DNA from: a virus
Direction: 5' to 3' (one strand)
DNA length: 64,000 bases
IMG/VR virus record: IMGVR_UViG_3300036767_000362
Shown here: piece by piece, positions 24,816 to 48,503 of the stretch
Numbering within the stretch: position 1 is the stretch's first letter
Layout of the letters: each line of letters opens with the position of its first letter
Notes under the pieces: model-generated
Told to the model about the DNA's origin: nothing
Seen by the model: only the letters and a program-made list of their open reading frames with translations
Database searches by the model: none
Position numbers and translations under genes: made by a program

Positions 24816-25316
24816 TTATTTTGATAACTTATTTTGAAGTTTTGTAGAAAGGTTTTCTTTGTAAGAATCTTGTGTATTAGTTGTTTCTTTTTTGTCTAAA
24901 TAGTCATGTAAAAACGCATCAACATCTTCTATTGTTTTAAACGTTCCTAAATGTTTTTCACCTTGCCATACTTGGAAGTCACCATCTTTACTTTTTGTAG
25001 TGTATATTCCATATTTGTTCATATCAGGCATAGGATTAGTTTCGCCAACATAATTTATTGAATTGTTAAATTTTTCTTTGTAATCAAAGTGATTGAATAC
25101 AGTAGTTAAGTAATCAGAAGCTTTAGTAATTTTTGCTTGTATCCAGCCTTCTAGTCCTTCTGATTCACTAACACTTTTCATCATGTCATGAAGTTTAATT
25201 GAATACTTTGCGGCTTTGTATAAATCACCTCGTGCCATTTGCACTTCGTGATCCTTTTCAGCTTTTTGAGCCTCATCCGCTAAATTTTCTTTAACTTTAA
25301 TTTCTTTGTGCTTCAT
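24816..25316 (-). CDS. Late protein, putative internal head protein
   Basis: MKHKEI..KE N-terminus; DHEVQMAR...LEGWIQAKITKASDYL; TATAAATA 5 nt upstream of ATG. Confidence 0.6.
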   Translation of the reverse strand: MKHKEIKVKENLADEAQKAEKDHEVQMARGDLYKAAKYSIKLHDMMKSVSESEGLEGWIQAKITKASDYLTTVFNHFDYKEKFNNSINYVGETNPMPDMNKYGIYTTKSKDGDFQVWQGEKHLGTFKTIEDVDAFLHDYLDKKETTNTQDSYKENLSTKLQNKLSK

Positions 25317-25321
25317 AGTAG

Positions 25322-25329
25322 TATTTATA
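25322..25329 (-). promoter_or_regulatory. T4 late promoter consensus TATAAATA
   Basis: TATAAATA-CTACT-ATG. Confidence 0.65.
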
Positions 25330-25597
25330 CTCGTTTAATAGGTTGCCCAAATAAACTTACGTTAGGCATCTCATGGGCACCTTTAACTCTGCCATCTGGA
25401 TGTTTAGGTGTAGCTACTTTAGGTATTTTAGGAGCTTTCCAACCTGACTTTCCTGGATACCCTGTATAAGACTTTTTAAATCTATCAGGACCAATTGCAA
25501 CTTGTGGATTATTTACAGTAGCAATGTTACCAGCCGAAGTTGCTCCTGCTGTTGCATATTCATCTACTCTAGTACTTAAAATTTCTCTAATCTTCAT
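25325..25597 (-). CDS. Late protein, putative internal head protein
   Basis: MKIREIL N-terminus; E-YATAGATSAGNIA; AATAAATA-GTATT-ATG. Confidence 0.65.
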   Translation of the reverse strand: MKIREILSTRVDEYATAGATSAGNIATVNNPQVAIGPDRFKKSYTGYPGKSGWKAPKIPKVATPKHPDGRVKGAHEMPNVSLFGQPIKRV

Positions 25598-25601
25598 AAT
25601 A

Positions 25602-25784
25602 CTATTTATTTTTGCCTTTATAGATTTGTTTGGCTCTTTTACTAATGCTATATTTGGCGTGAGGAACTTTTAAATTCTTTTTACCGTAAACGTTACCAAT
25701 TACGTGTGGGTAGGTTACGGTCTTGGCATTAGGGTCAATGCCATAATGATGATCGTGTCTTCTTTTGATTTCGTTGATTTTCAT
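25602..25784 (-). CDS. Small basic late protein
   Basis: MKINEI N-terminus, 60 aa. Confidence 0.55.
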   Translation of the reverse strand: MKINEIKRRHDHHYGIDPNAKTVTYPHVIGNVYGKKNLKVPHAKYSISKRAKQIYKGKNK

Positions 25785-25817
25785 TGTGAAATGAAAAGAT
25801 AAACCTAGGGGGAACTA

Positions 25818-26063
25818 CTAGTCTACTTTGATTATATTTTTAATAGCTTGATGTAGTTTTTCTGCAGTTGCAACACCTAATTGTCTCTGTGCATACTCTT
25901 TATCTCCATCGATAAGAGCCGCTACTTGATCAATCATTTCAAGTTTAGTAATACTACCGTTCTTGAAATTTGTGTTTATTGTTATTGCACTTTCGGCTAT
26001 AGTTTTAGCCCAGTTATTTTCTGCTACTATTTCTGCTAATGCTGTTTCGTCTGCCGCCGCCAT
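25818..26063 (-). CDS. Hypothetical protein
   Basis: SD AGGAG and TATAAATA at 26091-26098. Confidence 0.7.
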   Translation of the reverse strand: MAAADETALAEIVAENNWAKTIAESAITINTNFKNGSITKLEMIDQVAALIDGDKEYAQRQLGVATAEKLHQAIKNIIKVD

Positions 26064-26098
26064 AGTGTATCTCCTTTAGTGTTATACTTGTATTTATA

Positions 26099-26299
26099 TT
26101 ATCTCAGCTTTTTAATTGTACGTCCTAACCCTAGTTTTTTAACGTTTTTATACTCATCTCCGGGCTTAACGTCGCTTGTAGTGTTTTGTTTAGTAATAAT
26201 ACCCACACTTGAAGCTTCTTCATTTTTATTCTTAATAAGTTGAACAATTTTAGTTCTAGACTCTTCTAAAGGTAATGCTACAATTTCAAGAATTTTCAT
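26099..26299 (-). CDS. Small late protein
   Basis: MKILEI N-terminus; GIITKQNTTSDVKPG. Confidence 0.6.
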   Translation of the reverse strand: MKILEIVALPLEESRTKIVQLIKNKNEEASSVGIITKQNTTSDVKPGDEYKNVKKLGLGRTIKKLR

Positions 26300-26472
26300 T
26301 ATAATTTACCTCTTTTTAATTGATCTTTAGTTACTTTATATGGTACTTTTTCAATTTTACCACCTTTAGCAAGAAACTCTTTCATCATACGATCACGATC
26401 TTCTTGCGTTGTTTTCTTGTCTTCTTCTTTACCTGACGAATATACTCTATTGATCCCTGTGAATTTGGGCAT
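26299..26472 (-). CDS. 57-aa microprotein with SutA-like RNAP-binding motif
   Basis: Not in track; SD AGGAG, ATG 26472, TAATG overlap with next gene; MPKFTGINRVYSSGKEEDKKTTQEDRDRMMKEFLAKGGKIEKVPYKVTKDQLKRGKL. Confidence 0.7.
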   Translation of the reverse strand: MPKFTGINRVYSSGKEEDKKTTQEDRDRMMKEFLAKGGKIEKVPYKVTKDQLKRGKL

Positions 26473-27013
26473 ATTGTTCTAACTCCTGTTTTACTTTACT
26501 TATCGGATTCTTATTAGCCTGATATAAAATTCCATATCCCCCAGACGCTTTCCAACGATCTAAATTTTTTGGTCTATCATCAATTAGTATATTAGACACC
26601 TTTGTTCTTTTGTCTATTGCATATGATTCTTTTCTTCCAGTGATAATAATTTGATTTGGTGCTTCTATATTTTGTTGTAACCAAAACCTTTTGCCATTTG
26701 TTGAATTTTCATGGTCACCTCTTAAAGGGGATGATAATATAGAAAACGTACCGCCTGTAAATTCTTTAACAGTTGCAATTAATTCATCAGCAGTAGGAAA
26801 TTTAGGTAATGTTTTAAAGAAATCTGTACCAGTTATTCTATTAATAACTTCTTGTTTAAGGTCTTTAGTTTTATCGGATACTAATTGTTTCCAATGTTCA
26901 ACACCATATAATTTTTCTACACCACCAAAAAAGTCTGCGATAACTCCGTCCATATCTACATAGACTATTGGTTTGTTTACTGGCTCTTGACCATCTACTT
27001 CAAAAAATTTCAT
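26447..27013 (-). CDS. 5'(3')-deoxyribonucleotidase (NT5C-type HAD)
   Basis: VYVDMDGVIADF, ILSSP, K..W, ILIDDRPKN..W...GGYGI. Confidence 0.85.
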   Translation of the reverse strand: MKFFEVDGQEPVNKPIVYVDMDGVIADFFGGVEKLYGVEHWKQLVSDKTKDLKQEVINRITGTDFFKTLPKFPTADELIATVKEFTGGTFSILSSPLRGDHENSTNGKRFWLQQNIEAPNQIIITGRKESYAIDKRTKVSNILIDDRPKNLDRWKASGGYGILYQANKNPISKVKQELEQYAQIHRDQ

Positions 27014-27018
27014 TGGAA

Positions 27019-28119
27019 TTATGCAATTCCTATGTGTGTTACCTTAGGAAACTTTTGTTTAATATGACGTGCAAATTGATTGAATTGCATTATTAATCTA
27101 TTATCCCAACCTTCTGGTTTACCACCACCTATCATTGTTGCTCCACCTCCGGATTTATCAACTGTTGTAGGAACTTCTCCAGATGGTTTATTAATGTGTT
27201 TCTTTAACCATTGAGTTGTAATATTAATAAATTTATCTATAGGCATAGGTCCTGCGTCTTCAAAATTAGGATCCATACCTAATGAATTTAATATATCTCT
27301 CATTGAAAAGTTTGAAAGATAGGGACTTTCATCTTCATCCCCCATGCCATCTGGGAATTCCCAAACGTCTTGCATTTTACCATCAAATTCTTTTTTAGTT
27401 AAAAAATATGGATTTAAACTTGCTCCTTCTTTCATAGCACTTTCATTGTTAGGCATAAATTTTGCATATTTCTTTTGCATATATTTTACTTGATTTAAAT
27501 CTTTACCTATATCAAGTCTTAATTTTACGCCTTTTATATCTTGTGTAATTTCGTTAGCTTTTTCATCGTCACCTTGTTCTTGTGCAATTTCTAATGCAGA
27601 GTTCATTGCTTTTACAACATCAACACTATTGTTTAATGCGTCATTAATTGAACCAACACCTGCTAAAGTTCCTATAATTATTCCAGCCGCCGCTAATTTT
27701 CTTAGATATTCTTTTACACCTTCATCTAAATTTTCATCTTCATCGGACCAATAAACTGCTGATTCGTTTTGAACATCGTGAGATGCTAATACCATGGCCA
27801 TTGCATCTGCTACTCCAATTTTATTTCTGTTCATGTCTTCTAACTTTGAAGTATCACCGTGGTCATTAAACACTGCCATATACTCATGAATTGCATTTGG
27901 ATCAAATCCTGCTTTTTCTAATACAATTCTGCCTTTTTCTGAAATGTCTTCTTTAGCCATTTTTGTAGCAGTAGCATACATTACAGATTTGTAATCATCG
28001 CCATATCTTGCTTTAAAATCTTTGGCACTTTTCTTCATGCCTTTGACATATTTTTCTTTTTTAGATTTTTGTTTTTTAGATAATTTTTTTTCGGAAGTAT
28101 AAAATTCTTTAGATCGCAT
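27019..28119 (-). CDS. Modular late protein, putative internal head polyprotein
   Basis: Start MRSKEF (28119, TAATG overlap); KEKYVKGMKKSAKDFKARYG...VMYATATKMAKE module followed by unrelated segments joined at Glu-containing linkers. Confidence 0.65.
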   Translation of the reverse strand: MRSKEFYTSEKKLSKKQKSKKEKYVKGMKKSAKDFKARYGDDYKSVMYATATKMAKEDISEKGRIVLEKAGFDPNAIHEYMAVFNDHGDTSKLEDMNRNKIGVADAMAMVLASHDVQNESAVYWSDEDENLDEGVKEYLRKLAAAGIIIGTLAGVGSINDALNNSVDVVKAMNSALEIAQEQGDDEKANEITQDIKGVKLRLDIGKDLNQVKYMQKKYAKFMPNNESAMKEGASLNPYFLTKKEFDGKMQDVWEFPDGMGDEDESPYLSNFSMRDILNSLGMDPNFEDAGPMPIDKFINITTQWLKKHINKPSGEVPTTVDKSGGGATMIGGGKPEGWDNRLIMQFNQFARHIKQKFPKVTHIGIA

Positions 28120-30866
28120 TACTCTGCCCTCAATGTCGACTTTTTCCACCCTTTAGCAAGAAATTCATTATGTTTACTTTTAGGAATTAAAATTGTTTTA
28201 CCATTTTTATGAACATATATTTTAGGTACTGATTGACCTAATCTTTTTAGGTCAGCTGGTTGCATACCATCGCTATCTTGTTCTTTTTTAATAGGTAACT
28301 CTGGTTGTTTCATTCTTACGTTTGTTATACCCATTTTTGCTAACTTCTCTGGCATTTTAGTTACAACAAATCTACCACTTGTATCTTTGTCATCAAAATC
28401 GTATCCGGCTGTACTCATTAAATCTCTAATTGCAAAGTTTCCATCGGATGATCCAAAGCCTTCTCCATCTGGCCAATCTGCATAATGTGGACCATTAGCA
28501 ACTTCTTCGCCTGCCGCTTTTAATTCTTTTGCAAAATTTACATATTCTTCTGCTGATATAAATTTTCTCATCACAGCCATTCTAACTAAATCCATTCCTG
28601 TTCCAAATGGTGCATCTTCTTTTACTGCACTATCTTCTTTTTTTAGTGGTAATCCTAAATGATCTACACTTTCAGTTGTTTCTTGTTTACCAGCCTGAAC
28701 TCTATCCCAATAGTATGAACTCATTTTACCGTAACCATGTCTCCAAGCCATTTGACGTAGTGTTGTTTCATCTTTGTCTTTAAATCTGTCTGCTAATTCT
28801 TTATCAGACATAAACGCAAGTTTTTGTTTATGCTTTATAATTGAGGCTGGCATTCTTTCTTTTAATCCATAATCTTTTTTATCAAAATTTAGTATTTTAG
28901 ATAATTCTTCTTTTGCAGAAGGACTTTGTTCAACATCAATTAGTTGATTAATCATATCAATAGCATTAACACTATTGCCATCTTGTATATTTTCTTTTAT
29001 AGCAGTTAATACATCAATTTTATTTGAAAATCCATTAATATTAAATTCTTTTACTGTAGATTCAGTTTTATATACATTTTGAATTTTATCAATTAAAGGA
29101 GGCCAACTTTCTTTAATAGTAGAAGATATAACTTTTGCCATATTATTATCACCTTTAAGTACAGCATCAGCTAGTTCTAATCCATGACTTAAAGAAGCCT
29201 GTGCGGCACCTAATAAACTTGCTTCAGAATCTTCTTTTACTGATTCATCACTCATTGGACTTGTTATAGGTGTACTTTTTAGAGCTGGGTCTTTTTTAAA
29301 TGCTGGTTTTAATTGTTTTCCTTTATATGCAGTTTGTCCTGTAGGTATTTTTTGTACTTTACCACCTTTAGCAAGAAATTGCTTCATTAATTCGTCGCTG
29401 GCTTTCTTTTTATCATCTTTACTATCTTCAAACTTACTTCTTAAATGATCTAAATCTAATTCAAAGTCATCTGACTTGTAATAATCTTGCCAAGTTTTAA
29501 ATCGTGCTTGTAAGTCTTTAGCTCTACCGTGTTTTTCATCGTAATACCATATTTTTGCCATTTCTTCTGGTGAAACTACATCTGTATAATCTGTTATTTG
29601 TGGTTCATCATCTTCGTTTGCTTTTCTTAATGCATCAGCAACATCTGGATGACTTGATAATCCTTTTGCAATTCTTTCAATATTTTTTACAGCGGTTGTA
29701 TGATTATCTACATATAATTTAGCATATGCTTTTGCTTTTGCTATTTGACCAAAAGAAAAGTTTTCTTTGCCATCTTCTTTAGTTGATTCTCCTTGTGTTG
29801 CATAATCCTCAGCAACCCAGTCAATAAGTTCACCTGTTTTTTCAAATTCTTCTAATTCTTCATCAGTTAAAGGTGTGCCATCTATATATTTTGCTCCAAG
29901 TAATTGAAAAATCATATCACTAAAATCCTGCATTTCATAGTCTATGCTATTATGATCTATTTCTTTACCACGAAACATTATATTGGCATAATCAACTTTT
30001 TGATCTCTTGCTACTTTATATGCCGCCCAAGATTTTTCGTCATCTTCTTTTAATGGTAATCCTAAATGATCTACGCCTTGCATTGTTGCTGTGTCTTTTT
30101 GTAAAAGGGCGTGAACTGTAGATCTTAACTCTGGATCTGTTCTAAACATTTGTGCAATAGAATTTGCGTCAGGTTGTGCTTGTTTTTGTGCTTGTTTTTG
30201 TGCTGGTGCTTGTGCTGGTGCTTGTGCTGGTGCTTGTGCTGGTGCTTGTGCTGGTGCTTGTTTTTGTGCTGGTGCTTGTTTTTTTGCTGGTACAACTTTT
30301 TTGGCTCTAAATTGATCTCGAGCCATATGTTGAAATATTTTATCAACATCTCCTGCTGATGGATTTTTCCCTTTCCATTTTTGAAGGTAGCTTGTATCAG
30401 CTCCTTTTGTTGTCATAAAATCTTTTAATTGTTTTAGTGTAGGATTGTTATAATCTGCACCAACTTGACCCACATACTGTCTCCATTCGTCGTACATTTG
30501 TTTCATTACATCATCTGACTGCATTGCACCTTTCATTCCTGCCGCAGTACCTCTCATTCCAAGTTTTGATGCCGCTTTTTGACCAAGACTTGTAGCCGCT
30601 CTTTTAAGCATACCCATACCCGGTGCTTCTTTAGTAGTAGTGTCTTCCCATTTTAAATTTTTTTCAGCCCAGGCTCTTAATTCTAATTTTCTTTTTTGGA
30701 TTTCTGCCATTAGATCAGCATCGGTTCTATTTACAGGGTCTAATGCCATGTCCTGAAGATGCTTCATTAATTCTCTATAATGTTCTTTATTTCGTGGAGT
30801 TACAACTTGTCTAAATTCGGCAAGTTTACTAAATCTAACTGCTTTGTTAAGGTCATGTAAATTCAT
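28119..30866 (-). CDS. 915-aa mosaic late protein, putative protease-processed internal polyprotein
   Basis: About 11 short dissimilar segments separated by TKE/LKE/VKE/KKE linkers; duplicated VDHLGLPLK linker; SutA-like motif; QAPA repeat. Confidence 0.7.
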   Translation of the reverse strand: MNLHDLNKAVRFSKLAEFRQVVTPRNKEHYRELMKHLQDMALDPVNRTDADLMAEIQKRKLELRAWAEKNLKWEDTTTKEAPGMGMLKRAATSLGQKAASKLGMRGTAAGMKGAMQSDDVMKQMYDEWRQYVGQVGADYNNPTLKQLKDFMTTKGADTSYLQKWKGKNPSAGDVDKIFQHMARDQFRAKKVVPAKKQAPAQKQAPAQAPAQAPAQAPAQAPAQKQAQKQAQPDANSIAQMFRTDPELRSTVHALLQKDTATMQGVDHLGLPLKEDDEKSWAAYKVARDQKVDYANIMFRGKEIDHNSIDYEMQDFSDMIFQLLGAKYIDGTPLTDEELEEFEKTGELIDWVAEDYATQGESTKEDGKENFSFGQIAKAKAYAKLYVDNHTTAVKNIERIAKGLSSHPDVADALRKANEDDEPQITDYTDVVSPEEMAKIWYYDEKHGRAKDLQARFKTWQDYYKSDDFELDLDHLRSKFEDSKDDKKKASDELMKQFLAKGGKVQKIPTGQTAYKGKQLKPAFKKDPALKSTPITSPMSDESVKEDSEASLLGAAQASLSHGLELADAVLKGDNNMAKVISSTIKESWPPLIDKIQNVYKTESTVKEFNINGFSNKIDVLTAIKENIQDGNSVNAIDMINQLIDVEQSPSAKEELSKILNFDKKDYGLKERMPASIIKHKQKLAFMSDKELADRFKDKDETTLRQMAWRHGYGKMSSYYWDRVQAGKQETTESVDHLGLPLKKEDSAVKEDAPFGTGMDLVRMAVMRKFISAEEYVNFAKELKAAGEEVANGPHYADWPDGEGFGSSDGNFAIRDLMSTAGYDFDDKDTSGRFVVTKMPEKLAKMGITNVRMKQPELPIKKEQDSDGMQPADLKRLGQSVPKIYVHKNGKTILIPKSKHNEFLAKGWKKSTLRAE
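28647..30074. repeat. 21-bp direct repeat pair tggtaatcctaaatgatctac (28647-28667, 30054-30074)
   Basis: Identical copies encoding the VDHLGLP linker. Confidence 0.9.
30199..30258. repeat. 12-bp tandem repeat (tgtgctggtgct) x5 plus degenerate flanks
   Basis: Encodes the QAPA repeat linker. Confidence 0.95.
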
Positions 30867-31072
30867 TATATTTTTCTACCTCTAATTCCTTTAGTTTTTT
30901 GCATAAGTGGTCTTCTAAACCATAATTTAAACCATCCTGGATCTCCAGGTCTTAATCCTAATGCTTTCTCCCTGTCTTTAATTGCCTGTGCAGTATGAGT
31001 CATATTATATTCTGACTCACTTGGTTCAGAATCTGTTATGCCTGCTAATTTTTTTAATGTTGCAATTTCCAT
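30866..31072 (-). CDS. Small hypothetical late protein
   Basis: MEIATLKKLAGI...RPGDPGWFKLWF; AATAAATA 8 nt upstream. Confidence 0.6.
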   Translation of the reverse strand: MEIATLKKLAGITDSEPSESEYNMTHTAQAIKDREKALGLRPGDPGWFKLWFRRPLMQKTKGIRGRKI

Positions 31073-31089
31073 ATATAACATATTTATTA

Positions 31090-31656
31090 TTATGCCGGCA
31101 TATTTAATTTAGATCTCAATTTATTATACAGCATTTTAGCCAGCTTTTTATCGCCCGGAATTGCCCTTAAAAAGTTAATTTCGTCCCCTCTAGAAGCCAT
31201 ATCACGTACTCTACTACCGCTTACACCTTCTACACCATCTGAATCAGGGTCTCTTGTTCCTGCATTTACAGTATTAATGTTATCAAATTGATATTCTGAT
31301 CCATTATATTTGTTTAATAGTTCATTAAACTGTTTAACTCTGTCACTTCCTGCAACATAGGTAATATGTGTATAACCCATTGACTCTAATTTTTGCATGG
31401 CTTGAATAATTGTTCTAACATTTGGATCACCTATTTTAATACCTTTAAACATTTGTTGAGCAAAAAACAGTTTTTCAGCAAATCCTAAAGGATCTGTGTT
31501 TGCTTTTTGAGTATGTGTTAAAAATAAAAAATGATCGCCAGGTTGTGCTTGGATTGTGTTTATTAATTTTTGATGACCAATAGTAGGAGGATTAAATCGA
31601 CCGAAGGCGAAAGATGCAGGTTTAGTTATAGCTTCGGTAAACTCCTTTGATCTCAT
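31090..31656 (-). CDS. Cytidylyltransferase-like (HIGH-family nucleotidyltransferase)
   Basis: FAFGRFNPPTIGHQKL, VAGSDRV, AGTRDPD...SGSRVR; N-terminus MRSKEFTE. Confidence 0.85.
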   Translation of the reverse strand: MRSKEFTEAITKPASFAFGRFNPPTIGHQKLINTIQAQPGDHFLFLTHTQKANTDPLGFAEKLFFAQQMFKGIKIGDPNVRTIIQAMQKLESMGYTHITYVAGSDRVKQFNELLNKYNGSEYQFDNINTVNAGTRDPDSDGVEGVSGSRVRDMASRGDEINFLRAIPGDKKLAKMLYNKLRSKLNMPA

Positions 31657-31982
31657 TATGCATTCTCATTCTCTTTATCGATCTCGTCTTGTTCTGCTTC
31701 AGTATCAATAATTTTTTGTTGTAAAGATTCTTTGTCTTCATCTTTAATAACTCTTTCGGGTCTAGCCTTTACATCAAATTGTTTAAAGTATAAATTGATT
31801 GCTGTATCTATTAAAGGTTTTATAGTTGAGTTATTGCCTTCTTTTTTAGCTTTATCTATAGTTGGAAAATAATGTTTTCTATAAAAGTTAGGGTCATTAA
31901 TCATAAAATAATGAATATCATCCATTATATTATAGTCCAACTCTGTTGGCATTTGATAATCTGTAAATTCGTTAATTTTCAT
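31656..31982 (-). CDS. Hypothetical late protein
   Basis: MKINEF N-terminus; SD AGGAG. Confidence 0.7.
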   Translation of the reverse strand: MKINEFTDYQMPTELDYNIMDDIHYFMINDPNFYRKHYFPTIDKAKKEGNNSTIKPLIDTAINLYFKQFDVKARPERVIKDEDKESLQQKIIDTEAEQDEIDKENENA

Positions 31983-32353: not shown

Positions 32354-32392
32354 ACTGATATTTATCCTATATGCCTGTCCTAAGGTGCAAGG

Positions 32393-34639
32393 CTAACTCT
32401 TGATGAGTTTAACAGCTTCTTCGTAGATTATTGTAATTTCTTTGTCTTTGGCGTCTATTTTAGCTTTACCACCATTTTTTAACTTACCAAATAGCAATTC
32501 TTTGGACAGGGGCTTCTTAATTCTCTCATCTATGAGTCTTTGCATAGGTCTAGCACCCATTTTATCGTCATGTCCTTTTTCTACTAACCAGTCTATGGCT
32601 TCATCGCTTAATTCTAATACTGTATTTTTGTCTTTTAGTAACATTTTAAGTTCTAGCATAAATTTACCAACAATTTTTATCAGTATTTCTTTAGATAGTT
32701 TTTTGAATACAATAGTACCATCTAATCTGTTTCTAAATTCTGGTGGAAAGAATTTTTTCATCTCTTTATCATCATATTCGCTAGTAGATTGGGAGTCATT
32801 GAATCCCATAACATTTTTATCTAGTTGATCTGCACCTAAATTAGTAGTTAAAATTAATGTAATATTTTTACAGTCTGCTTCTTTACCATTGTTACCCATA
32901 ATTGTTCCTTCATCCATTATTTGAAGTAATATTTGACTTACGTCTGGGTGTGCTTTTTCTATTTCATCTAATAATAATACACAATTAGGATGTTCTTGTA
33001 ATTTTGTAATAAGCAATCCTGTATTTTCTTCAAATCCAACATATCCTGGAGGTGATCCAATTAATTTTGCAACTGCGTGTTTTTCTTGATATTCTGACAT
33101 ATCAAATCTAACTAATTTTACACCTAAATGAGTTGAAAGTTGTTTTGCTGTTTCTGTTTTACCACAACCAGTTGGGCCCATAAACACAAATGATCCAATT
33201 GGTTTATTATCTCTTTTTAATCCTGCGTGTGCTACCATAATTTTATCAATAATTGCTTCTATGGCTTTGTCTTGTCCGAATACACCGCTTTTCATATTTC
33301 TATCTAAGTTATTAAGAGCTGAAGATTCTTTTTGTTGAATGTTTTCAACTGGCATTTTAACAGCTTTTGCTATTTCAAATTGAATTTCTTCTGCTCCAAT
33401 TACTTTTTCGGTATTAGGATCTTTAAGATTAAATCTACTACAAGCTAAATCTATTAGATCAATTGCCTTATCAGGTAATTTTTTATCGCTTTGATACTTA
33501 ACACTGGTTTTAACTGCTTCATTAATTGCTTGATCCGTTATTGCAATACTGTGAAAGTCTTCATAATACTTTCTAAGTCCGTGTAATATTTTAACTGTAG
33601 TTGGTTTATCAGGTTCATCTACAGATATTCTTTGAAATCTTCTCATTAATGCTCTATCTTTTTCAAAATACTTTCTATATTCTTCCCAAGTAGTTGATGC
33701 AACAACTTTAAGGTCACCTTTAGTTAATACTGGTTTTAATAAATTAGCTAAATCATTACTATTTGTAGTCCCACCAGCACCTGCTCCACTAATATTGTGT
33801 GCTTCATCTATAAAACAAATAGTTTTACCTTTCTTTTTTAATGCAGATAATACAAGTTTAAATCTTTCTTCAAAATCTCCTCTATATTTAGAACCAGCTA
33901 ACATTCCACCAATATCTAAATTATATATTTTGTAATCTTTTAAAAAATCAGGGCAAGTTCCTTTTTCTATATTAAATGCTAGTCCTTCTGCAATAGCAGT
34001 TTTACCCACTCCAGGATCTCCTACTAGGATTACATTATTTTTAGTTCTTCTTCCTAATGCTAATGCTATAGAATTCAACTCTTCTACTCTACCTATTACA
34101 GGATCTATTCTTTTCTTTTTAACTTCGCTGTTTAAATTTGTAGTATAAAGACCTAATGCTCTTTTTGCCGCGGATTGATCAACTTCATCTTCATATAAAG
34201 ATTCCATTTCTGCAGAAACATACTCTTGAAACTTGTCTTTGCTTATTTCAGTCTTCATAATGAAGTAATAAGCCCAACTTTTCTTTTCACTCATCATACT
34301 TAGAAATACATCTGTAATATCTATATGACTTCTACCACTAAACAACACCTGTGTAAATGCTCTGTTTAGTATTCTTTCTACACTTGTTGTTTTTTTAGGT
34401 TTATATTTTGAAATATTTTCAAGTGTTATAGTTTTTAATTTATTTTTAAGGTATTGTTCTACTTCTGTTCTTAAATCTTCAACATCTGCACCAAACCCTT
34501 TAATCATATTTACAAATTTGTCAGTGCATAGCATTGCATATAGTAAATGCTCTACAGTTACGTATTCATGCTTTAACTTTTTAGCATCAACAACTGCTTT
34601 ATCAAAAACTAATTGTAACTCTTGACTAGGCTCTACCAT
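32393..34639 (-). CDS. clpA: ATP-dependent Clp protease ATPase subunit ClpA
   Basis: Clp-N HEYVTVEHLL, NBD1 GDPGVGKT/FIDEAH, pore loop KYRG, NBD2 GPTGCGKTE, PPGYVG, LLDEIEKAH, MGF ClpP-docking loop, GARPM. Confidence 0.95.
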   Translation of the reverse strand: MVEPSQELQLVFDKAVVDAKKLKHEYVTVEHLLYAMLCTDKFVNMIKGFGADVEDLRTEVEQYLKNKLKTITLENISKYKPKKTTSVERILNRAFTQVLFSGRSHIDITDVFLSMMSEKKSWAYYFIMKTEISKDKFQEYVSAEMESLYEDEVDQSAAKRALGLYTTNLNSEVKKKRIDPVIGRVEELNSIALALGRRTKNNVILVGDPGVGKTAIAEGLAFNIEKGTCPDFLKDYKIYNLDIGGMLAGSKYRGDFEERFKLVLSALKKKGKTICFIDEAHNISGAGAGGTTNSNDLANLLKPVLTKGDLKVVASTTWEEYRKYFEKDRALMRRFQRISVDEPDKPTTVKILHGLRKYYEDFHSIAITDQAINEAVKTSVKYQSDKKLPDKAIDLIDLACSRFNLKDPNTEKVIGAEEIQFEIAKAVKMPVENIQQKESSALNNLDRNMKSGVFGQDKAIEAIIDKIMVAHAGLKRDNKPIGSFVFMGPTGCGKTETAKQLSTHLGVKLVRFDMSEYQEKHAVAKLIGSPPGYVGFEENTGLLITKLQEHPNCVLLLDEIEKAHPDVSQILLQIMDEGTIMGNNGKEADCKNITLILTTNLGADQLDKNVMGFNDSQSTSEYDDKEMKKFFPPEFRNRLDGTIVFKKLSKEILIKIVGKFMLELKMLLKDKNTVLELSDEAIDWLVEKGHDDKMGARPMQRLIDERIKKPLSKELLFGKLKNGGKAKIDAKDKEITIIYEEAVKLIKS

Positions 34640-35147
34640 GTTCTAATTCCTTTATTGCTTTTTTTTGCTTCTTTAAAGCCATATCTAATCTTAATTTACT
34701 GACTCTTGCAGGATTAACGAACGTTATACCCTCCAAATGGTCGTATTCATGCAAAAAACATCTTGCATCATAACCACTAAACTCCATTATACACTCTTTT
34801 TGTTTGCTGTCAAGGAATTTAACGGTAACCTTTTCTGGTCTTCTAACTTTAATCCATAATTTTGGAAAACTAAGACAACCTTCTACATCTTCAATTTTAT
34901 TAAGACTTATTTGCTCAATTGTAGGGTCAATTATAGCAAGAGGTTTAGTAATTCCTTTAGTTCTTTTTGGAAATATTGTAAAAACTCTTGCATCTAAGCT
35001 AACTTGATTTGCCGCCAGGCCGATACCATCATTATTCATCATAATAGATATCATTTCTTGTTCAATTTTTTCAGAATCCAAATTTTCCCAGTCAAAAGGT
35101 TTAACTTTTTTGTCTAAAAATTCATTTGGATATCTAATTAGTTCCAT
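34626..35147 (-). CDS. def: Peptide deformylase
   Basis: GIGLAANQV, EGCLS, HEYDHLEG. Confidence 0.95.
   Translation of the reverse strand: MELIRYPNEFLDKKVKPFDWENLDSEKIEQEMISIMMNNDGIGLAANQVSLDARVFTIFPKRTKGITKPLAIIDPTIEQISLNKIEDVEGCLSFPKLWIKVRRPEKVTVKFLDSKQKECIMEFSGYDARCFLHEYDHLEGITFVNPARVSKLRLDMALKKQKKAIKELEHGRA
34786..34813 (-). promoter_or_regulatory. Possible internal sigma70 promoter for clpA inside def
   Basis: TTGACA-N16-TATAAT about 150 nt upstream of clpA. Confidence 0.45.
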
Positions 35148-44601: not shown

Positions 44602-44626
44602 ATCTTATATCCTACAATTATTTATC

Positions 44627-47746: not shown

Positions 47747-47785
47747 ACGATTATTATCCTTTTTTAATATTTATCGTAAGAACAA

Positions 47786-48469: not shown

Positions 48470-48503
48470 TTTTATCTCCTACTCATATTTATCATTATTA
48501 ACT

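Follow-up and report, generated by a model that had tools for sequence, protein, structure and literature searches.

A mosaic 915-residue protein of an uncultured marine jumbo phage as a candidate cargo polyprotein of the capsid

We analysed DNA of the virus record IMGVR_UViG_3300036767_000362 in IMG/VR (the whole stretch of 64,000 nucleotides is called the window here) and focused on a gene at 28119-30866 on its minus strand. The open reading frame (ORF) is real and encodes a protein of 915 residues (103 kDa), a mosaic of about 11 modules whose joints end in Glu. We consider it probable that this protein is a capsid-targeted cargo polyprotein which is cut by the prohead protease. The same interpretation had been put forward in an original prediction made from the letters alone. 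Its computable expectations, namely the mosaic, the mini-domains, the late-type motifs and a protease in the lineage, were borne out, and the joint motif had to be restated as hydrophobic-x-E instead of xKE.

According to this interpretation, the gene would be expressed late and the chain would enter the prohead during assembly, with its short N-terminal MxLxDL...LAE leader as the probable signal, in the manner of the T4 capsid targeting sequence. A gp21-type (S77) protease would then cut after the Glu of every hydrophobic-x-E joint to release about 11 products of 6-21 kDa, which would remain in the head and travel with the DNA. One of them would be a SutA-like peptide, possibly binding RNA polymerase. 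Recombination in short conserved linkers would add, drop, reorder, fuse and split modules while the mature products stay unchanged, and this would be tolerated because every module has its own joint.

Relatives of the protein were collected from metagenomes; a word-indexed search gave 152 and an exhaustive HMMER search 446. Single modules of it are shared by about 450 metagenome proteins, 60 to 1537 residues long, in which the modules are reordered, stand alone or are fused to enzymes. Only about 12 relatives are roughly collinear with the 915-residue protein; the others share one to four segments with 40-86% identity. We clustered the starts and ends of the BLAST matches of about 250 non-collinear relatives. 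The homology breakpoints fell at residues ~80, 274, 364, 418, 480, 545, 607, 670, 744/750 and 862, which are the junctions that had been read from the sequence beforehand. As expected for a mosaic of about 11 segments, the collinear relatives differ by insertion, deletion or movement of whole modules at these junctions, and the pieces match both stand-alone small ORFs and polyproteins of different order. The homologue sets of the approximately 11 modules are independent of each other. Homologues aligning throughout as one collinear fold were not seen.

Individual modules (Table 1) illustrate this mobility. Module A occurs alone as the 71-residue protein P0203 and lies downstream of module H in P0016 and P0139. 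Module B is missing in the closest relatives, where A joins C directly, and is otherwise present only in P0013; stand-alone copies are found in P0234 and P0264, behind leaders ending in VNE/AP and LDE/AP (a slash marks the joint). Module C has been relocated between H and I in P0013 and P0014. Module D ends at ANE ahead of differing modules in P0126, in a 594-residue protein of the relative G011 and in others, and D2 is joined to other partners in G011. Module E exists alone as the 71-residue P0187 and as the 57-residue gene of the window. Module F is swapped for G in P0005, and most relatives have F without G; three proteins (P0001, P0003 and P0005) are the only ones with G, as an insertion after TVKE. 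Module H stands alone or first in P0181, P0201 and P0238 and module J in P0262, and three close relatives have an additional 115-residue module ahead of J.

Shuffling at the linkers, also part of the original prediction, is supported at the DNA level, as module gain and loss falls on linkers that are repeated there. An exact 21-bp repeat (28647-28667 and 30054-30074) codes for the VDHLGLP linker. Another exact 21-bp repeat (26356-26376 and 29358-29378) ties the stand-alone 57-residue gene to the FLAKGGK module, of which a third and weaker FLAKG copy is located at the C-terminus of the 915-residue protein.

The junctions had been described as xKE. The Glu at the end of the joint was confirmed, and Lys at P2 turned out to be peculiar to this protein. 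We inspected the sequences preceding modules H, I and E in all relatives, counting unrelated upstream contexts only. Before module I, P1 is Glu in 28 of 31 contexts and P3 is V, L, F, I or M in 24 of 31, with Glu at no more than 29% in neighbouring positions. Upstream of module H stands (V/L/I)-x-E, or else E-G or E-A, and module E follows the same pattern. The family-wide joint is hydrophobic-x-Glu, at times hydrophobic-x-x-Glu, and as a motif it fits the L/I-x-E rule of T4 gp21. At the well-supported breakpoints of a 267-protein network, an analysis not anchored on the 915-residue protein, the last aligned residue is Glu at a frequency of 0.31-0.32 against a background of 0.087. Unfiltered edges of high-scoring segment pairs showed only about two-fold Glu enrichment because the ends of BLAST matches are fuzzy, and filtering to the well-supported breakpoints sharpened it. 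Furthermore, proteins often terminate exactly at the joint Glu. The 915-residue protein itself stops directly after LRAE, a sequence after which other proteins go on into a 16-residue tail (TSYESKL..NQRLK) or into module H.

We also considered over-representation of hydrophobic-x-E in the 915-residue protein and rejected it, as 12 such motifs were seen and 14.2 +/- 3.1 in shuffled sequences. What is non-random is the placement and conservation of hydrophobic-x-E at module borders. The motif count and the lack of a hydrophobic P3 at some joints favour the main rival explanation, in which the protein is an uncleaved string of beads, trimmed at most at its N-terminus, whose modules work jointly on a single flexible chain, and the acidic Glu-ending linkers are flexible spacers and recombination microhomologies. 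The linkers are indeed charged and predicted to be disordered, and 21 bp of identical linker DNA would favour recombination. We nevertheless judge this explanation unlikely. It leaves unexplained why P1 is Glu rather than Asp in about 90% of unrelated contexts and why P3 is hydrophobic, and it gives no account of the stops exactly after a joint Glu.

The leaders of the stand-alone copies are likewise unaccounted for by an uncleaved chain. Stand-alone modules carry leaders of 5-24 residues which end in hydrophobic-x-E directly ahead of the module start (for example MKLQELITLSE, MRLEQINKPIQE and MKINEIEQTLIAE). Their type, MKxxE(I/F)...hydrophobic-x-E, resembles the T4 capsid targeting sequence. 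The same motif thus recurs on separate genes, and a single leader can serve different modules: M[KR]L[KE][EQ]INKPI[KQ]E is found in front of module A or of module H, depending on the protein. Module H, which is nearly always preceded by hydrophobic-x-E, has nine different leaders in its stand-alone or first-position copies. Residues 1-17 of the 915-residue protein align with the 12-residue leader M(K/R)LKEINKPIKE/Y of other module-A proteins and, by this pattern match, are a candidate capsid-targeting propeptide. Within the window, the pattern M[KRN]xx[DE][FILV] opens 9 of the 12 ORFs at 24816-31982 as compared to 0 of 67 elsewhere (Fisher p = 1e-9).

A protease of the appropriate type is present in the lineage. 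T4 gp21 cuts after the Glu of L/I-x-E and removes a 10-residue capsid targeting sequence from the internal proteins (PMC9026906), and the proteases of phiKZ and SPN3US likewise cleave after Glu (PMC9026906, PMC5694885). Peptidase_S77 (PF03420) scored above cut-off in the relatives G006 (357 kb, rated complete), G007, G008 and G011, where its gene adjoins the portal, scaffold-like and major capsid genes. G011 has both the protease and module-bearing genes, the latter beside its polymerase. No Glu-directed site-specific protease besides S77 was found in the lineage.

The major capsid protein gives a further link. About 55 capsid proteins of the lineage retain YLxE followed by ATAGATSAGNVATL, and by BLASTP this N-terminal stretch aligns with residues 74-132 of T4 gp23, a few residues downstream of FLTE65/A. 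From this alignment the capsid protein would be cut after YLxE. The peptide ATAGATSAGNVATL is reused as a module right after hydrophobic-x-E in a window ORF at 25325-25597, in P0118 (GIKE/T...) and in P0171 (AME/T...). This reuse suggests a tie between the polyprotein joints and the presumed maturation site of the capsid protein; an uncleaved chain offers no reason why the YLxE-ATAGATSAGN peptide should serve as joint and module. Mass spectrometry of virions of the cultured T4-like cyanophage S-CREM2 listed gp154, gp155, gp156 and gp160 (PMC10665884), and the record of S-CREM2 annotates "virion protein". S-CREM2 gp154 is a homologue of the window ORF at 31090-31656 (32% identity, E = 8e-22) with the N-terminus MKNFSSFLTE/A. 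gp160 shares modules with small ORFs with MKINE leaders in G011 and with the network protein P0190, which also has module I.

Multiple cuts by a prohead protease could also mean that the protein is a filler of the prohead core or scaffold like T4 gp22, gp67 and gp68, whose fragments are expelled to free space for the DNA. In T4, gp21 cleaves the core proteins at several places (PMC9026906), and the many joints and several acidic modules (pI 4.2-5.0) would suit this role. We regard it as quite improbable. The modules here occur as independent conserved genes and also in fusion with enzymes (cytidylyltransferase-like and 5'-nucleotidase in P0209), their extreme presence/absence variation among close relatives suits accessory cargo, and separate scaffold-like genes lie beside the protease of the lineage.

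Structure prediction gave independent mini-domains with floppy joints, as had been expected of a cargo chain. The full-length AlphaFold model was poor (mean predicted local distance difference test score, pLDDT, 45.9; predicted template modelling score 0.23) because the alignment was shallow, and we used it solely for the pattern of domains and linkers: folded islands are separated by dips of confidence at the joints. When the alignment was deeper, I and J were predicted as two separate mini-domains (pLDDT ~80-90 and 74-85, respectively) and the PIKKE/Q linker between them stays below 50. No convincing fold match was obtained for the model of I and J, with a best E of 1.5 by Foldseek against the PDB, E >= 0.09 against BFVD and a best Z of 3.6 in a wide VIA-align search; the ESM Atlas gave no usable match for these modules, and a PDB sequence search gave nothing meaningful. 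Pfam and PHROGs searches with the 915-residue protein returned only a sub-threshold match to the SutA RNA-polymerase-binding domain (SutA-RBD, PF20661). In module E about 20 residues match this profile at 22.8 bits (cut-off 29.3). The stand-alone 57-residue gene scores 21.9 bits and eight diverged homologues 17-26.5 bits against the same cut-off of 29.3. Several modules are acidic (pI 4.2-5.0), and the predicted products of 6-21 kDa are basic and acidic alike.

The window has a G+C content of 32% and all of its genes are on the minus strand. Its products include a T4-type DNA polymerase, a clamp loader, and baseplate and tail-fibre proteins. The nearest relatives of the polymerase are in jumbo phages, for example Atu_ph07 and the RaK2 group. 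In IMG/VR, relatives of 32-48 kb have a completeness rating of 8-14%, from which a genome size of about 350 kb follows. The source of the gene is an uncultured marine jumbo T4-related phage. TAATG overlaps of one base join the 915-residue gene to both neighbours, to which it is translationally coupled. The gene lies in a hyperplastic late locus at about 24.8-32.4 kb of the window.

Fifteen DATAAATA sites were found in the window, all on the coding strand and a few tens of bases upstream of gene starts, including those of tail genes. The motif is three-fold depleted (15 versus 44 +/- 7 in shuffles), and 6 of the 15 sites are within the 24.8-32.4 kb locus; others are at 44619-44626, 47768-47775 and 48486-48493. 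The strict T4 late promoter TATAAATA is rare, with 2 sites in the window; the informative motif was the looser DATAAATA. We take DATAAATA to be the probable late promoter of the lineage, in which the form GATAAATA outnumbers the TATAAATA of T4. The placement of DATAAATA supports late expression of the locus.

Several points weigh against a capsid-targeted, cleaved polyprotein. We infer targeting, cutting, retention, injection and the functions of the modules. The protease and the capsid gene of the window phage are likewise deduced from relatives (70% DNA polymerase identity or shared modules), as there are no head genes within the 64-kb window. The complete 357-kb relative G006 has the protease and no detectable modules of the 915-residue protein, and the whole protein had no match in G006 or in four other long relatives. 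Hydrophobic-x-E is without overall excess and six such motifs are within modules. Joints without hydrophobic P3 are TKE (twice), ANE, KFE and KKE (twice); P3 is T, A or K at several joints of this protein, and P4 there is often hydrophobic. The conserved Glu at the borders could belong to the mobile unit for non-proteolytic reasons. The link to S-CREM2 virions is indirect, being two steps removed from the 915-residue protein. Finally, the gene sits amid nucleotide-metabolism and proteostasis genes, distant from the head genes, and a perfect sigma-70 consensus (TTGACA, 16 nt, TATAAT) at 34786-34813 (-) could read through the locus.

These surroundings, together with the sigma-70 promoter and a ClpA-like gene upstream of the polyprotein locus at 32393-34639 (-), would favour a polyprotein of the cytoplasm, which another host or phage protease would split into equimolar host-takeover factors acting outside the capsid. 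We think this very improbable. S77 is the sole site-specific Glu-directed protease found in the lineage. Clp proteases act by processive degradation and not by cleavage at fixed positions. The late-type motifs, the T4-like leaders and the reuse of the capsid N-terminal site point to the prohead, and homologues of locus members are in S-CREM2 virions. As to its position, the sigma-70 consensus is about 150 nt upstream of the ClpA-like gene, within the preceding ORF.

Table 1. Modules of the 915-residue protein and related features of the window
Feature	Position	Strand	Remarks
Late-promoter-like motif GATAAATA, head of the polyprotein gene run	32359..32366	-	
Late-promoter-like motif AATAAATA, 215 nt upstream of the polyprotein start	31081..31088	-	
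N-terminal leader, residues 1-17 (MNLHDL...KLAE/F), ends L-A-E	30816..30866	-	kept in orthologues
Module A, residues 18-80, helical	30627..30815	-	pLDDT 66-80
Module B, residues 81-274: helical domain, low-complexity (PAQ)n tract, first VDHLGLPLKE linker	30045..30626	-	
Module C, residues 275-364	29775..30044	-	many partial-coverage relatives
Module D, residues 365-418, ends RANE	29613..29774	-	
Module D2, residues 419-480	29427..29612	-	match ends/starts cluster at 418 and 481
Module E, residues 481-545, FLAKGGK module, SutA-RBD-like	29232..29426	-	
Module F, residues 546-607	29046..29231	-	
Module G, residues 608-670	28857..29045	-	
Module H, residues 671-744 (RMPASIIK...), with second VDHLGLPLKKE linker	28635..28856	-	~110 matches, widespread
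Six-residue spacer DSAVKE, residues 745-750, between two Glu joints	28617..28634	-	S(A/K)VKE in orthologues
Module I, residues 751-862 (DAPFGTGM...)	28281..28616	-	~140 matches, most widespread module
Module J, residues 863-915: beta-hairpin and helix, FLAKGWKK	28122..28280	-	pLDDT 74-85
Neighbour polyprotein P0002, 366 residues, MRSKEF leader	27022..28119	-	coupled to the 915-residue gene
Stand-alone 57-residue copy of module E	26299..26472	-	21 identical bp with 29358-29378

The adjacent gene had been predicted to show the same design, and we agree: pieces of its product P0002 recur after hydrophobic-x-E in other proteins, and G011 has its C-terminal domain in one protein with modules I, D2 and D. 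The nine ORFs with the leader pattern include those of a cytidylyltransferase-like enzyme (31090-31656) and a 5'-nucleotidase (26447-27013), and P0209 fuses homologues of these two through module E, at ITVQE/Y and ESIKE/A. The 90-residue ORF at 25325-25597 (-) reads MKIREILSTRVDE/YATAGATSAGNIATV..., with a V-D-E site (...RVDE) directly before YATAGATSAGNIATV. About 13 of its residues repeat what is predicted to be the mature N-terminus of the lineage's major capsid protein (YLxE/xATAGATSAGNVATL). Homologues occur in G011, and also in P0118 and P0171 as modules at the C-terminus or inside the chain. Its product may be a mimic of the protease substrate or a peptide that binds the capsid lattice. 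Just upstream of the polyprotein, a 71-residue ORF at 30866-31081 (-) opens with E-x-x-(R/K)-(I/L)-(K/R)-K-L-A-G-(I/L) (...EIATLKKLAGI). This motif is also the extreme C-terminus of a scaffold-like protein of the relatives (...NIRKLAGI and ...IKRLAGLN; L112:5526-6590 (-), L093:8537-9631 (-)), whose gene is placed between those of the protease and the capsid, and the motif is found inside a G011 polyprotein as well. It may be a capsid- or scaffold-binding tag.

A 14-residue tail, YESKLxxxLNQ(R/Q)LK, ends 105 of 269 proteins of the module network (P0008, P0125-P0127, P0145, L113:7171-8850 (-) and others). It stands behind a Glu joint, is found after four or more different modules and is not on the 915-residue protein of the window; it may be a C-terminal targeting propeptide. 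In module B, a 12-nt tandem repeat at 30174-30291 (9.8 copies) encodes (AP/AQ)n, and its length likely varies from strain to strain. The FLAKG motif is common to module J and the SutA-like module E. Homing endonucleases of phages contain small domains to which module J gave short BFVD matches (34-48 columns, probability 0.95-1.0, E >= 0.09). The residues after the joints, which would become new N-termini, are mostly D, with R and F, and Y in relatives. Such N-terminal residues act as N-degrons for ClpS/ClpAP in some bacteria. A link between these residues, the phage ClpA-like ATPase and a timed turnover of released modules is speculative.

Megablast and tblastn searches of 50,697 phage records gave no match for the locus or module H beyond C48C1. 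This Kyanoviridae phage (OQ984149.1, 156 kb) provided the one weak match among these records, a module-D relative. The gene, L114:3500-4621 (+), is close to a cytidyltransferase gene and encodes a hypothetical protein of 373 residues with a module-D-like segment and ESVQE and ESVELE linkers. The C48C1 protein therefore suggests that the design reaches ordinary-sized T4-like marine phages. We give an even chance to a broader postulation, that marine T4-related phages, both jumbo and cyanophage-like, carry plug-in cassettes of injected effectors. Joint-bearing proteins and enzymes would stand alone behind a capsid-targeting leader or be chained in any order. From either arrangement the protease would restore the same mature set inside the capsid, including a SutA-like peptide directed against the RNA polymerase of the host, and this set would travel with the DNA. 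Cargo would be diversified by recombination at the joints across a very large natural population.

If the interpretation is true, the T4 idea of one leader for one cargo becomes combinatorial, with a single late gene loading about 12 small proteins per capsid. It would also explain a large class of mosaic proteins that lack annotation in ocean viromes, with about 450 relatives collected here. The protease motif would be the unit of processing and of recombination alike. The modules would be concrete candidates for the factors by which abundant marine phages take over the host, or counter its defences, within the first minute. Foreign proteins have already been loaded into capsids by means of the T4 capsid targeting sequence, and the leaders and joints described here would be reusable for the same purpose.

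Among known systems, the profile core of the SutA RNA-polymerase-binding domain (PF20661) is matched, below cut-off, by module E and the 57-residue gene. The T4 internal proteins IPI, IPII and IPIII and Alt resemble the locus in their short MK...hydrophobic-x-E leader and in the Glu-specific T4-type protease of the lineage (PMC9026906, PMC12373910, PMC3012670). The T-even internal proteins have only the leader in common and come from a variable hotspot location (PMC12373910); here too the members of a variable accessory locus share only a leader, and small products are expected to accompany the DNA. The 915-residue protein has no sequence similarity to any T4 internal protein, and in the literature searched we found no description of capsid targeting sequences or of such polyproteins in marine phages. 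In T4 each cargo has its own gene and one N-terminal cut (Alt has a C-terminal cut too), whereas here about 11 modules are chained with a joint before each. The modules also move between genes.

Giant phages pack many proteins cut by the prohead protease (PMC9026906, PMC5694885, PMC10052503). T4 gp22, gp67 and gp68 and the inner-body and ejection proteins of phiKZ and SPN3US are similar in that one polypeptide receives several cuts at x-x-Glu from the prohead protease (PMC9026906, PMC5694885, PMC10052503). No homology to these proteins was found, and the 915-residue protein matches no PHROG head or scaffold family. They are single proteins with propeptides or degraded scaffolds, not chains of separately encoded modules that evolve independently. 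Polyvalent proteins of phages and conjugative elements (Iyer et al. 2017, PMC5512222) also combine many unrelated domains in one chain, and these are presumed to travel with the DNA and to be released from each other proteolytically. They usually embed a peptidase (zincin-like MPTase or assemblin-like) together with large enzymatic or effector domains (ART, MuF, ParB), and neither an embedded peptidase nor an effector-enzyme domain was detected in the 915-residue protein by Pfam and PHROGs. Unlike in polyvalent proteins, the predicted cuts here rely on a separately encoded head protease, and the modules are tiny (53-194 residues).

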